64,000 nt of DNA from Escherichia coli O157:H7 (GTDB taxonomy: Bacteria > Pseudomonadota > Gammaproteobacteria > Enterobacterales > Enterobacteriaceae): the NCBI RefSeq assembly GCF_013167455.1, contig NZ_CP038328.1. The stretch is one strand, 5' to 3'. How positions within the stretch are numbered: the stretch's first letter is position 1; every line of letters starts with the position of its first letter. Positions 35,901 to 41,900 of this stretch are shown piece after piece. The position numbers are program-made.

Positions 35901-38900
35901 TCGCAACCGCATCATTCACCGCCTGCTGCAGTACATCCGGATCATAATCACGACCGTCACGCGGAGCAGGGATATGGCTTACAGCCTCTTTCACCATCTG
36001 CTCAAGCATCGGACGCACATCATCGGGGGTGATACTTTTGCCGTCCGCCGGTACCGGAATATTCGCAACCGCATCATTCACCGCCTGCTTCAGTACTTCC
36101 GGATCATAATCACGACCGTCACGCGGAGCAGGGATATGGCTTACAGCCTCTTTCACCATCTGCTCAAGCATCGGACGCACATCATCGGGGGTGATACTTT
36201 TGCCGTCCGCCGGTACCGGAATATTCGCAACCGCATCATTCACCGCCTGCTGCAGTACATCCGGATCATAATCACGACCATCACGCGGTACCGGAATGGT
36301 CCCCACAGCGTCATCCACCATCGCCTGCAGAACCGGATGTACCTCATCCACCGTCACATGCTTCTGTAATACCGCCGACAGGGAAGCCAGTTTCTCTTCA
36401 AACGCTTGTGCCTGCGCGGCCATCTTCCCCTCAAATGTGCGCTGTAAATCCGCCAGCACCGTGGAGAATTCTTCGCCCAGTGCACGAATAATGGACAGTT
36501 CCCGTTCCGTCATTTTCTCAGTATCCCCCTGAACATCGCTTTCACTGCATCATGCTCTGTTTCACTGATTGCCTTATTACCGTCAGATGCGCCGTCAGGC
36601 AGTTGTGCTGAAACTGTTTTCCCGGCCGACGCGAACGGGTCCTCACGGGCATCACGACGGGACAGCGCCTCCAGACTGTAGTTCTGCTGCTGAAGATACA
36701 GTGCATCACCACCGGCAAGGGGCGGCAGGTTCTCACGTTTACGGGCCTCATTGGGCGTGAGAAGCGTATTTTTCACCGATTCACCCAGTGTTTTCATGCG
36801 CCGTTCGCTGTCCATTCTCAGCAGCGTGGTGACGTCAAACTCCGTGCTCTCGTTTTCCCCCGTTTCCAGCGCCTCATCCAGTAACAGCTCAATGGACTCA
36901 ATCAGCGTCTGCAGACACTGGGAATAATACTGCTGCTCCAGCGCCTCCACGTTGTCACTGGAAGGCGGGTGGCCAACGCCAATCTTGTAGGCCGGGACAC
37001 GGAACACCGAACAGACAATTTCAGCCGTCATTTTCAGTTGTTCCACCGTCTGCGCATCCACCGGTGAAAACGTCGTGGGGCTGTATTTTGCCCCGTTGCT
37101 CAGTATGGCCGTCTTCCCGGCATTTTCGCCCGTATATCCGCTGTCCCAGTTCCCCTTCAGTTTTTTCGCGTTTTCTTCCGTAATACTGCCGGGGACCTCA
37201 ATCACGCCTGATGGTCGCCCGCCATTTCTGAAAAAATACGTCGAATTTGCCTGAATATGATGCCCCTGCATGGCGGCCAGTCCTGCGGCATACACCGGCG
37301 GCAGCCCCACAAGCGGATGAAAAAAACAGTTAAAACGGTCGTGGATCACCTCCCGGGCAGGCACCGTCACCGACTCTGTGATCCCACAGTTCCGGTCCGG
37401 CGTGATGCGGTAGAACACGTCGCCGTCATCCGCCACCAGAGGTTCAACCCGGTTCCAGTCCAGAATACGCAGTTCTTTGATCTGCCCCCGGGGGTTGCGG
37501 ATTTTCAGCACCACCGTATTGCCGTGACGCAATTTGGAATTCAGCCACAGTTCAAAAAACTGGATGCGATTCTGCTGCGCATTAGGACGACGACAGAGAC
37601 GGGCAGTATCTCCCTGCCGCTTTTCCCGGCGTATTCCCTGTACATCAGTCTGCATCAGGCGAAGCCGCATTTTGGCAATATCCTGGGATATCAGCGAAAT
37701 GCATGAAAACACCGCGTGAAAGGACAAAACGGTTTCCGGATCGGCTTTCACACCCTGCTGCCAGGCACCGGCAAAAGGCTCAGCCACCGCCTGAAACAGG
37801 GACCGCCAGCCCACTTCTCTTACGTCACGTCCTGATTTCTGGTTTTTTCGGGTTCGCCGCAAAAGGTTCCACATTCGCCATGCTCCGCATCACGTTTCTT
37901 TTTCTGACCTGCCGGACGTCGCGCTGTGATGTACTCCGCCTTCCCCAGGCGAACCAGCACCTCCGCACACGGCTGTGCCACATCACGGATATCCCCGGCC
38001 CGGGCATCATGCGTGCCCTGCAGATACTGGATTTTTGCCATCTGTTACTGCGGGAAGCTCGCGCCTCCCGCCCTCCTCATCAGACTCAGCCACCGGACGC
38101 AGTTCCGTAGTTCACACCGGTGATCACCGCCACTGCCGCGGTACGGCGACGACGCCAGTTGATCCAGCGCTCCGCACGGATGGCCACGCTGCCGGTCTGA
38201 AACATGGAGACCAGTTCCACCGGTGACGGTGTGCTGCTGTCGCTGGTCGGTTCAGACTGCATCTCCAGTGACGCTTCACGGGACATATCCACCGCCACAC
38301 CGCCGTCATCAGCCAGATAAATATCCGGTGCATTCACCAGTACCAGCTGGTCACCCACATACTGGGAGACAATCACCGGCAGCCCCTGGAAGGTCCCGCC
38401 CAGCAAGGTCATGTCCGGATATTCCTTCTGCCCCAGCGCATTTTTACGCATGGACAGCGCCAGGGCATTCGTGCTGGACATCAGCCAGACCGCACCGGTG
38501 GGCTGCAGATTTGCCGTCACAAACTGGCCAAACGCGGCCTCGGCATCCGCATCCGGGTTACCGGTTGATGCCGTGCCCTTCACATCATGGGTGATGGACG
38601 CCGGGGAGACATCCGCCACCGCCGCTTTTTTCGGGTCCACAAAGTCTGTGTCCAGACGCGCCACCACCGCTTCCGCCAGCGCATTACGGACCAGTGCATC
38701 AGCAGCCGGACTGGAAAAACGGATCAATTCTTCCGTCAGTACCGCAATGGCCGACACTTTCGCATGACTGAAGGTGATGGATTCAAAATCAAACTTCGTC
38801 AGGGGTCTGGCCTTACCCTCACCCACCCAGCCGGCAGCACCACCGGACACCTGGGCATGCACGCGGATATTGAACGGCACCTGACGAAGTGCAGGGATCC

Positions 38901-41900
38901 CGCCCTGACCAAATCGCCCGATAATGGTCTGCGGACGCAGGTAATCAATAAAGTCCTGCGCATATTCCTGGTATTCAGACAGGCTGCCTGCCCACTGCGG
39001 GTCCGTGGTGGTCCCTGCCCCCACCGCCGATTTCAGGACATGATGCAGACGGCTGTCATCCGGATACTGACGACGGGCCACTTCCAGGGCTTCAGAGCGG
39101 ACACCTTTAGCCGCGGCCAGTGATTTGGCAAAGCGGGCGAAACCAATCCCCTTCTCCAGTTTCTGCTCAACACGGATCACCGGCGCTGAAGCCACCGTGG
39201 CCACATTCCCGTTACCGGCCTGTTTCACCGGCTGTGCCGTGGCGGCCTTACTGGTTTCCAGTTCACGCAGACGCTTCAGGTGCGCATCCACCTGACGGAT
39301 TTCCGCTGCGGTGTTGTCGTAGTGCTCTTCCTCTTCCACATCCAGTGTGCGGCCTTCCTCTGCGGCTTTGTTCATGATCTCCTCAAGGGAGGCTGCCAGC
39401 GCCGCACGCTTGTTTTCAAAACTTTTAATCTGTTCACCAGTATTCATTGCTGACTTTTCCTTATGAAAAGAGGTTATTGACTGTGCCGAAGCGCCGGCAG
39501 AAGATGCGATTTTCACCACCGGTTTCCGGTTGCCGGACGCGGCAGAAAACGGGCGGTCGAAATATTTAATGGTCCGGATGGTGCATTCCGCATTCGCGGG
39601 CACGGTGACGGCAGACACCTCCATCAGCTCCCAGCGCAGAAAATGCAGTCCGCCTCCGTCCAGATAAGTGTATTCATGGGGCCGGAAGCCCACAGAAAGC
39701 CCCCTGACCAGCCCGGTCTTAATGGCAGCCCAGGCCTCATCCAGCCGGGCTGCCATCTGGGAGGGCATCCCCGGCTCCGGCTTCACCAGCATTGCCGTGA
39801 TTTCCAGCCCTTCCCTGACCCGACGCACCGTACACTGGCCTACAGGGCGGGAATGGTCATGCTGCCAGAGAAACGGGATCGTACTGCCAAACTCCGCCCC
39901 CTCCGGCTCCAGGATGTCACCATCCCGATCCGGAGAAGGCGTTGACGCAATCCCGGTGATCACCCGTTCATCCTCACTGAAGGATTTCACCGTCAGCAGG
40001 GAACAGGCCCGTTTAAGAGTCACATCAGCCTCCTGAAAATAAAAAAACCGCCGCAGCGGTTCATGATGGTTACAGGGTGAGCAGGGTTATATGAAAAAAA
40101 CCTCATACGCTTTCTTTTTCGGTTCCGGATTCAGGGACATCAGGGACACCGCATTGAAGAGCGCCATCAGCGGGTCAATTTTTCCCCGTCCGCTGGCCTG
40201 TTTGGTGATAAGAATGGCGTTACCTTTAGGCTCCACCCGGGCATTACCGACACACCAGGCCATCAGGGGCTGATCACCGTGAATCAGCACCCCTTCAGCC
40301 AGTTTGCGCTCGGTGGTTTTGATGGCCCCGCCCAGCTTCCAGCCCTGGCTTATCCCCACCACACTCTCATCGGGGATCCCGGCTTCCGCCAGTGAATCCA
40401 GAATCTGCCCCACACCTGACGGGTCAATACCGATATGATCCAGTAACTCAGCCTCATGAATACGACGCACATACTCCGCCACTTCCGCCGTGTCATCCCC
40501 GACCCGACGGACAATCGTCATGTCTCCACAGGCCACAAAATCCTGAAACCGGGATGCCTCACTCTTCCGTCTGACCACCGCGGTTTCATGCACCCAGGCA
40601 TGGCCCCAGCCCAGCCATTCGCGGGTTTCCCTGTCACGGCCAATCACGTACATTCCCAGCAGATCATCCAGGCCCCCGCCGTCAATCCCCACCGTCACCA
40701 CATCAGCGCGCTGCAGGATATCGTCCAGGCTGACGCGCCTGCCCTGCTGCTCCCAGAAATCCGCGCCCGCCCAGCGGTCAGAACGCAGGGCAAGACCGAT
40801 TTCCACATTGGCGTGTTTTGACATGAAGCCACGAAATGCTTCCTCACCAGCCTCCCGGGCTTTACGGTACTCCCGGTACAGAAAGGCCTCATCCACCGAA
40901 TAACCGAGATTCGGGTTAACCATGGCGAGGTTTTCCATCAGCAGGTGAGCCCCGCTTTCCACCATTTCAGGAGGATGCTCAAAAATCACCGGCAGAAAGT
41001 GCGGATCATGAATTTTGCCGTCACGGACATCCCGGGCATACTGCAGTTTCTGTCTGAACACCCCGGCGGGCGGTTCATTCGACTGGGTGGTCGTATACAC
41101 CACAAACCCTTCCGGACGGGAGGCAAGCCCGCCGATGGCTTCACGTAGCATGTCTTCCGCCTTGTACTGCTTGCCAAACAGCCACAGTTCATCAATCAGT
41201 GTCCCCACGGACTTGATACCGGACACCGTATTCGGATCGGCTGCCACCACCTTCAGGGTGGTGTCCGTCACCCGATGGGTGATGGTCCGGATATGTGTCT
41301 GCACCTGACAGAGGTCATCCAGATCATCGTCCCGTCGTACCATATCCCTGGCAGGGTTGAAGGCGTTAGCCGCCACCTCCACGGTCGGGGCCAGAATGGT
41401 GTAGCCCGCCGCCTGCCGCCAGTTCAGTAACAGCGCCGTCATCATGATCCCCGCAGCCAGCGTGGACTTACTGTTTTTCTTGGGGATAAGGATAAACACT
41501 TCCTTGATATGGCGAACACCGGTCTGCGCATCGTAGGAGCCAAACAGGGCCGCCACCAGGTCAAACACCCACGGTGCACAGGACTCCCCGAATGTCGGGC
41601 TACCCGGTGCATCCACAATTCGCAGTTGTTTAAAAATCGCCAGTGCATGTGCAGCCTGGTCCGGATAAATCGGAGCCGGAATAATCGACAGCCCCTTTTT
41701 CAGGCGCTCTGCCCAGTCCGGGCAGGCCGTGCTCCACACAGGTATCATCCGTTGCCCTCATTATCATTATTCACCACCAGGCGGGGTGGTGGTGGCACCG
41801 CAAAACGGTTAGCCGCTTTTTTCGCCGCGTCACCTTTTGCCGATTTTTTACCGGCATCCCCTTTTTTATGGTGCGTGAACTGCGCCAGCTTATAAGCCGC

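Follow-up and report, generated by a model that had tools for sequence, protein, structure and literature searches.

In the reference phage HK97, the head genes follow one another in the order terminase small subunit (terS), terminase large subunit (terL), portal, protease, and major capsid protein. Here, we analyzed a 64,000-nucleotide (nt) stretch of DNA from Escherichia coli O157:H7 (contig NZ_CP038328.1; hereafter the window), in which, according to the calls of open reading frames (ORFs), the whole head region lies on the minus strand and is laid out differently. Read from 5' to 3' on that strand, it comprises an HNH endonuclease gene, terS, terL, an ORF of 645 amino acids (aa), a 73-aa ORF, a 454-aa portal gene, and a 407-aa ORF, after which PHROG matches identified the adaptor Ad1, head closure Hc1, a neck protein of the HK97 gp10 family, the tail terminator, and the major tail protein. 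The ORFs were found where an initial reading made without database searches (the sequence-only reading) had placed them. We identify the locus as the head-morphogenesis block of a lambdoid prophage with a long tail, of the type represented by Stx-converting phages.

The closest described relatives are Stx-converting phages. A 7-kb block of the window is 99.9% identical at the DNA level to the Stx1a-converting phage Stx1_699, and 95 phage records match it at ≥90% identity, including Stx2a_1447/WGPS2 (Sawaravirus), JLK-2012 (Marienburgvirus), BP-4795, and Stx2 phage 1717. Across these named phages, identity over the block is 95–99.9%, with the same genes in the same order, and no difference of substance from the window was observed apart from a varying copy number of a 162-bp repeat. 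The same genes are recognizable in PAJU2 and vB_PaS_IME307 (Detrevirus), which carry terS, terL, a 667-aa fused protease–capsid gene, small ORFs, portal, a 334-aa protein, Ad1, and Hc1. The fusion protein of PAJU2 is 48% identical to that of the window, and PAJU2 shares the hairpin upstream of the fusion gene and has an internal AGGAGG followed by ATG. It differs in its Pseudomonas host, in its tail module, and in having two small ORFs rather than one between capsid and portal. The accessible PAJU2-related literature does not discuss the head genes.

HK97 itself has the same kinds of proteins in gp2–gp3–gp4–gp5, namely a His/Ser protease of the S78 family, a major capsid protein with a helical scaffold domain and the HK97 fold, and an HK97-family portal. 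However, its portal gene precedes the protease gene, and its protease and major capsid protein are encoded by separate genes, whereas in the window phage the protease and capsid cistrons are joined into one 645-aa frame. HK97 also has no counterparts of the 73-aa and 407-aa genes.

In phage lambda (C/Nu3) and in herpesviruses (UL26/UL26.5), a long protease product and a separately initiated short product are read in one frame and share their C-terminal part. Such nested genes tether a minority of protease to the assembling shell, and internal initiation has been demonstrated in them. The window gene resembles them in having an in-frame internal start codon preceded by a candidate ribosome-binding site (39445–39462). 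The shared part is scaffold only in lambda and herpesviruses, whereas in the window gene it would be scaffold plus capsid, with initiation at a predicted site.

Fusions of protease, scaffold, and capsid in one gene, the same three-part architecture as that of the window protein, have been described in actinobacteriophages of Microbacterium (EE, EL), Arthrobacter (AN, AX, FE, AU), Gordonia (CW, DM), and others (PMC7302621; bioRxiv 10.1101/2020.01.10.891226). The fusion-bearing phages of cluster AU have the usual order, with portal before the protease and capsid genes (bioRxiv 10.1101/2020.01.10.891226). The NCBIfam model NF045541 ("prohead protease/major capsid protein fusion protein") also represents this architecture but in a different sequence lineage, and the window ORF reaches only 52.7 bits against its cut-off of 525, over residues 49–267 (the protease/coil part). 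Overall, we consider it highly probable that the locus is an ordinary Stx-type head block with an order fixed in its family, whose joined protease and capsid frame probably has two products.

Fused and separate protease and capsid genes

A homologue search of 1.84 billion representative proteins gave 1174 matches to the 645-aa protein at E ≤ 1e-30, and about 128 of the best 150 were full-length (600–720 aa). Protein-level comparisons were based on 129 homologue representatives which are mutually <50% identical. For the analysis of genomic context, 80 loci with 35–76% protein identity were taken from one-genome-per-species bacterial assemblies, mostly of alpha-, beta-, and gamma-proteobacteria with a few metagenome-assembled genomes of other phyla, and phage and metagenome loci were added. 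Stop-to-stop ORFs were used, and terL, protease, capsid, portal, and their neighbors were located by hidden Markov models. A scan of viral contigs yielded almost only near-identical E. coli copies; conservation was therefore assessed from the species-level genome scan.

Protease and capsid share one stop-to-stop frame in 58 of the 89 loci and are encoded separately in the other 31; their order never varies. Where the capsid gene is separate, a normal Shine-Dalgarno (SD) motif precedes it and its product begins with M-(K/N/A)-x-(I/Y)-A-E-Q-I. Such a gene often overlaps the stop codon of the protease gene, and in the alignment its start coincides exactly with Met193 of the window protein. Residue 193 of the query is likewise where stand-alone capsid proteins of the representative library begin. 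On a neighbor-joining tree of the capsid domain (86 loci), at least 14 changes between the fused and unfused states were counted, as would be expected if fusing the two frames were nearly neutral.

Translation from Met193 in the window gene would give a 453-aa product which starts with M193-NTGEQIK and contains scaffold plus capsid. Because the capsid cistron appears to have kept its own SD motif and start codon inside the fused frame, the gene probably makes both a 70-kDa protease–scaffold–capsid polyprotein and a 49-kDa scaffold–capsid precursor. The main alternative, which we regard as possible but rather doubtful, is that only the full-length polyprotein is made, each subunit having its own protease, and that the Met codon and SD motif are a leftover or play a role at the protein level, for example as a cleavage or helix-capping motif.

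A mere leftover should decay, yet all 58 fused loci have an in-frame ATG (55 loci) or GTG (3 loci) where separate capsid genes start. Similarly, 117 of the 129 representatives have a Met within the 11 residues aligned to window residues 186–196, compared with 0.6% Met in the rest of the linker. Eight of the 12 Met-lacking representatives have Val instead, and in the one whose DNA was checked this residue is encoded by GTG behind GGAG, a replacement that also argues against production of the polyprotein only. Moreover, the SD motif is position-specific and equals those of genuine capsid starts in strength. Its duplex energy with the anti-SD sequence of 16S rRNA has a median of -5.6 and a mean of -6.9 kcal/mol at the fused-locus site, close to the -5.8 calculated for genuine starts (the 31 unfused genes) and far stronger than the in-gene background of -2.5. 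The complementarity has a sharp peak at the 8-mer whose last nucleotide lies 6 nt before the start codon; elsewhere in the linker it is absent.

The GG core of the motif is not tied to one codon phase (32/21/3), and the 58 loci have 50 different peptide sequences in this stretch. Conservation thus appears to be at the nucleotide rather than the protein level: the SD motif was kept across codon phases and encoded residues while the surrounding linker diverged completely, which is difficult to reconcile with a gene that makes only the polyprotein.

Several observations weigh on the other side. The actinobacteriophage fusions have been described as single proteins (PMC7302621; bioRxiv 10.1101/2020.01.10.891226). 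In the window, the internal SD motif is modest, as it comprises no more than AAGGA, separated from the ATG by a fairly long spacer of 10 nt. Among the in-frame positions of the fused gene it ranks at the 16th percentile by score, and of the 48 further in-frame start codons, 7 do equally well. Since the window motif is unexceptional, the case for an internal start comes from the comparison among loci and not from this sequence by itself. Translation from the strong upstream AGGAGG/GTG would also tend to mask the internal site, which ribosomes coming from there could occlude. In addition, a neighbor-joining tree is a crude means of counting transitions, and the loci are phylogenetically related, so that the counts are not independent.

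Considering both sides, we lean slightly toward a half-fusion, in which a working internal start would be retained, a minority of subunits would be tethered to protease while the majority would be ordinary capsid precursors, and genes could flip almost freely between the fused and separate states. By analogy with HK97 gp4/gp5, the N-terminal serine protease (His55/Ser110) would be carried into the procapsid tethered to the coiled coil and capsid domain, and the internal start at Met193 would supply the 453-aa precursor beside the 645-aa polyprotein. After assembly, as in HK97, the protease may remove about the first 290 residues, i.e., everything N-terminal to the capsid domain. The remaining shell would then have the HK97 fold with ~355 residues per subunit.

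If true, the half-fusion would be a bacterial-virus counterpart of C/Nu3 and UL26/UL26.5 in which the capsid protein itself is shared, and it would explain how protease dosage is set in "protease–capsid fusion" phages. The retained internal start offers a simple testable idea for control of the protease-to-capsid ratio in such phages. Any novelty of the locus may be limited to this site. A literature search, which left most subscription journals outside its reach, found no explicit discussion of the capsid-before-portal order or of internal initiation in protease–capsid fusions, and either may have been published there.

Some short motifs were also observed around the junction of the two parts. 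The proteases of unfused relatives (loci L129–L172) end in a conserved P-F-V-I-(R/K)-x-I. The fused linkers (39445–39561 in the window) are otherwise variable but contain the short conserved motifs AA[ST]G at residues 161–164 and PG[AV]SG at 176–180, and A[KT]PV is conserved at 263–266, after the coiled coil. These motifs are candidate capsid-targeting or cleavage sites. Maturation cleavage is expected somewhere between residues ~263 and 292, possibly at A[KT]PV.

Gene order across the phage family

All 84 loci in which terL, capsid, and portal were detected together, representing about 80 bacterial species, have the order terL, protease/capsid, portal on one strand. The canonical HK97 order, with portal directly after terL and before the protease, was found neither in the window nor in any of these 84 relatives. 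The order of the window was also observed in the annotated phages PAJU2, IME307, FSL SP-016, RHph_X2_26, SOVA965, BP-4795, and JLK-2012, whose hosts include Pseudomonas, Salmonella, Rhizobium, and Stenotrophomonas, as well as in a 43%-identical metagenomic contig. Since every one of the 84 loci has the same order, it is a standing layout of the family and not a rearrangement of this prophage. Capsid before portal is thus the invariant arrangement of a large and old proteobacterial phage family, whose order is terS, terL, protease, scaffold/capsid, small ORF(s), portal, a collagen/CBM fiber-like protein, adaptor, and head closure. No evidence was found that the position of the portal gene has a functional meaning; it is simply the layout of the lineage.

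The sequence-only reading had assumed that HK97-type phages normally run terL, portal, protease, capsid, and had offered a rearranged module as one explanation of the departure. That run does describe HK97, and relative to it the module is rearranged; however, the difference is shared by all 84 relatives rather than local to this prophage, and a whole family departs from the supposed rule. As the layout already appears in public annotation, "atypical" is a fair label for the order, whereas "new" is not. Automated annotation of prophages and gene calling by synteny would benefit from the knowledge that HK97-type heads do not universally follow terL, portal, protease, capsid.

Of 5426 complete E. 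coli genomes, 1254 carry the 5.2-kb terL-to-portal module, a single genome having as many as 7 copies. At ≥90% identity the stretch occurs in 1242 complete genomes, and it is 100% identical to several E. coli chromosomes. This prevalence speaks against the order or the fusion being a local accident, whether it arose by recent rearrangement, by decay of a defective prophage, or as an artifact of assembly or a frameshift which joined two genes. The idea draws on the many defective lambdoid prophages of O157-type E. coli genomes and on database entries for the fusion protein that are chimeric or truncated (P0002, P0003, and P0009). It is very improbable considering that the order is constant in the 84 diverse loci, that the fused frame recurs in 58 of the 89 loci and in about 128 clusters at 50% identity (600–720 aa), and that the catalytic residues are conserved. 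In addition, with protein identities of 35–77%, the relatives cannot all descend from a single recent event as copies of it.

The genes, their order, and the fusion are already in public annotation and are not new. The cluster of the fusion ORF at 90% identity contains 9916 member sequences, and depositors or the Prokaryotic Genome Annotation Pipeline have labeled the genes as terminase, "major head protein/prohead protease" or "phage major capsid protein", and portal. The RefSeq note for the PAJU2 homologue reads "prohead protease fused capsid protein". The flagged order by itself matters little, as about one in four complete E. coli genomes carries this prophage type, which is already annotated.

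Domain assignments of the fused protein and the portal

In the 645-aa ORF, Pfam detected Peptidase_S78 (PF04586) at residues 48–151 (E = 2.6e-7) and Phage_capsid (PF05065) at residues 386–635 (E = 1.2e-14). The NCBIfam model TIGR01554 (major_cap_HK97) scored 80.9 bits over residues 204–584 (cut-off 27.5), and phrog_617 ("major head protein") spans the ORF end to end (E = 4e-259). One result weighs against the protease assignment: the TIGR01543 protease model reached 44.1 bits, below its curated cut-off of 59. The candidate catalytic residues His55 and Ser110, the latter in the motif G-L-S-V-G-F, are each kept in 128 of the 129 representatives. The 454-aa ORF matches Phage_portal (PF04860) over the full model length (E = 2.8e-79) and TIGR01537 (portal_HK97) with 365 bits (cut-off 112).

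An AlphaFold2 model of the fusion ORF was built from a 135-sequence alignment and has a mean predicted local distance difference test (pLDDT) score of 86; in an earlier AlphaFold model from only 7 sequences the capsid domain was unusable (pLDDT 41). The model consists of a beta-rich protease (residues 17–154), a disordered linker (155–189), a helical hairpin (195–262), a short linker, and the capsid domain (293–645). The modeled hairpin is the predicted counterpart of the delta (scaffold) domain of HK97. When the model was compared with the PDB by Foldseek, all of the top 50 matches were HK97-fold capsid proteins, among them those of Bxb1 (E = 2e-14) and HK97 (gp5, E = 3e-10, with a template modeling score of 0.64–0.73 normalized to the target).

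The sequence-only reading had recognized protease, scaffold-like coil, and HK97-fold capsid in the ORF after terL, with a portal-like gene behind it, and both descriptions are borne out. It had also considered that one domain assignment might be wrong. Because Pfam, NCBIfam, PHROGs, and the AlphaFold model compared with the PDB all agree, no assignment is wrong: profile searches and fold place protease and capsid in 38086–40023 and portal in 36510–37874, the opposite of what a return to the canonical order would entail. A swap of the labels, with the 645-aa ORF as portal and the 454-aa ORF as capsid, is practically negligible given the strong portal matches of the latter, the Phage_capsid, TIGR01554, and Peptidase_S78 matches of the former, and the superposition of its model on HK97-fold capsids including HK97 gp5.

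Sequence similarity to the head proteins of HK97 is low. Identities are only 23–29% for terL versus gp2 (23%, E = 6.6e-11), portal versus gp3 (28%, E = 3e-22), and protease versus gp4 (29%, E = 1.6e-6, BLASTP), and the major capsid protein was undetectable by BLASTP. In contrast, identity to the HK97 counterparts, which include gp7, is 44% for Hc1, 75% for the gp10-family protein, 48% for the tail terminator, and 68% for the major tail protein. A mosaic joint separates the neck/tail genes (33040–35293), with their higher identities to HK97, from the head genes (36510–41748).

Neighboring genes and other features of the window

The coordinates of the features are given in table 1.

Table 1. Features of the head region and adjacent neck and tail genes (positions in the window)
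Feature	Position	Strand	Evidence or remark
HNH endonuclease gene	42598–42963	-	phrog_589, E = 5.6e-42; just upstream of the terminase genes
Terminase small subunit, 187 aa	41745–42308	-	phrog_641, E = 2.6e-68
Terminase large subunit, 553 aa	40087–41748	-	phrog_9 and phrog_7622, E = 1e-147 to 1e-153
Terminator-like G+C-rich hairpin and T-run	40045–40062	-	Consensus scan; between terL and the fusion gene
Protease/scaffold-like coiled coil/HK97-fold capsid ORF, 645 aa, GTG start	38086–40023	-	
Protease domain, residues 17–154	39562–39975	-	S78 match; model pLDDT >90
Candidate catalytic His55	39859–39861	-	Conservation
Candidate catalytic Ser110	39694–39696	-	Conservation
Candidate internal ribosome-binding site and start	39445–39462	-	AAGGA at 39458–39462, 10-nt spacer, in-frame ATG at 39445–39447 (Met193)
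Helical hairpin (predicted), residues 195–262	39238–39441	-	AlphaFold2 helices 195–223 and 229–262, pLDDT ~95
HK97-fold capsid domain, residues 293–645	38089–39147	-	Foldseek to Bxb1, D3, HK97, and T5 capsids; Pfam Phage_capsid
73-aa ORF, function unknown	37820–38041	-	phrog_829, E = 8e-39; between capsid and portal genes
Portal protein, 454 aa	36510–37874	-	PF04860 and TIGR01537
407-aa repeat protein	35290–36513	-	Start overlaps portal stop by 4 nt (ATGA)
Head–tail adaptor Ad1	34967–35293	-	phrog_40, E = 1.9e-30; TIGR01560
Hc1, HK97 gp10-family neck protein, tail terminator, major tail protein	33040–34956	-	PHROG matches

An HNH/DNase gene is annotated at the equivalent place in Stx phages. 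After the hairpin between terL and the fusion gene come the AGGAGG and the GTG start of the latter, and this layout is also present in relatives with 48–77% protein identity, including a Pseudomonas phage. In HK97, a putative terminator is annotated just before the protease gene.

The 73-aa ORF, which overlaps the predicted portal start by 55 nt, is conserved in enterobacterial relatives and is annotated as hypothetical in Stx phages. Most members of the family have one or more small ORFs between capsid and portal.

The 407-aa ORF is labeled "portal protein" in GenBank records of Stx phages, and phrog_2271 merges it with the portal. No portal similarity of the 407-aa protein was found, and databases thus propagate a portal label for what is a collagen-like/CBM repeat protein. 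It consists of an N-terminal coiled coil, 54-aa repeats, and a collagen-like and CBM5/12-like C-terminal domain. The repeats correspond to a tandem repeat at 35756–36288 (period 162 bp, 3.3 copies, 97% identity). Related Stx phages differ from the window by ~162 or ~324 bp over the block, which would fit the loss of a single unit or of two, and the repeat number appears to be variable among phages.

The conserved C-terminal domain of this protein (~150 residues) contains collagen-like G-x-D-G motifs. Its profile matched the chitin-binding domain of chitinase 60 (E = 6.5e-5), and Pfam CBM_5_12 was detected in 10 of 41 members at E ≤ 1e-3. When the 407-aa sequence itself was compared with the PDB, only designed helical repeats were matched; the CBM similarity was found only with the profile of the C-terminal domain. 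A homologue lies directly after the portal gene in most related loci and is therefore part of the conserved module. One may guess that the protein is a surface or neck fiber.

A programmed -1 frameshift at the A-AAA-TGA junction of the portal and 407-aa genes was considered, as it would explain the 859-aa phrog_2271 profile. This idea was set aside: the 4-nt ATGA overlap represents ordinary translational coupling, relatives have other junction types, and no other support was found.

Elsewhere in the window, a similarity search with the early region gave a mosaic, uninformative picture, and a crude six-frame motif scan of the whole window did not find the Stx A-subunit motif. The major tail protein ORF (33040–33825, minus strand) reaches 23 codons further upstream than the start adopted for HK97 and in the annotation of Stx phages, and its C-terminal part matches Ig-like "Hoc-like head decoration" PHROGs. 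A terminator-like hairpin was also detected in the region of this ORF (33779–33793). Finally, G+C content is low at 8001–10000, 18001–20000, and 50001–52000 (0.39–0.42, compared with ~0.52–0.60 around them), and these three stretches are possibly morons, cargo, or insertion sites.

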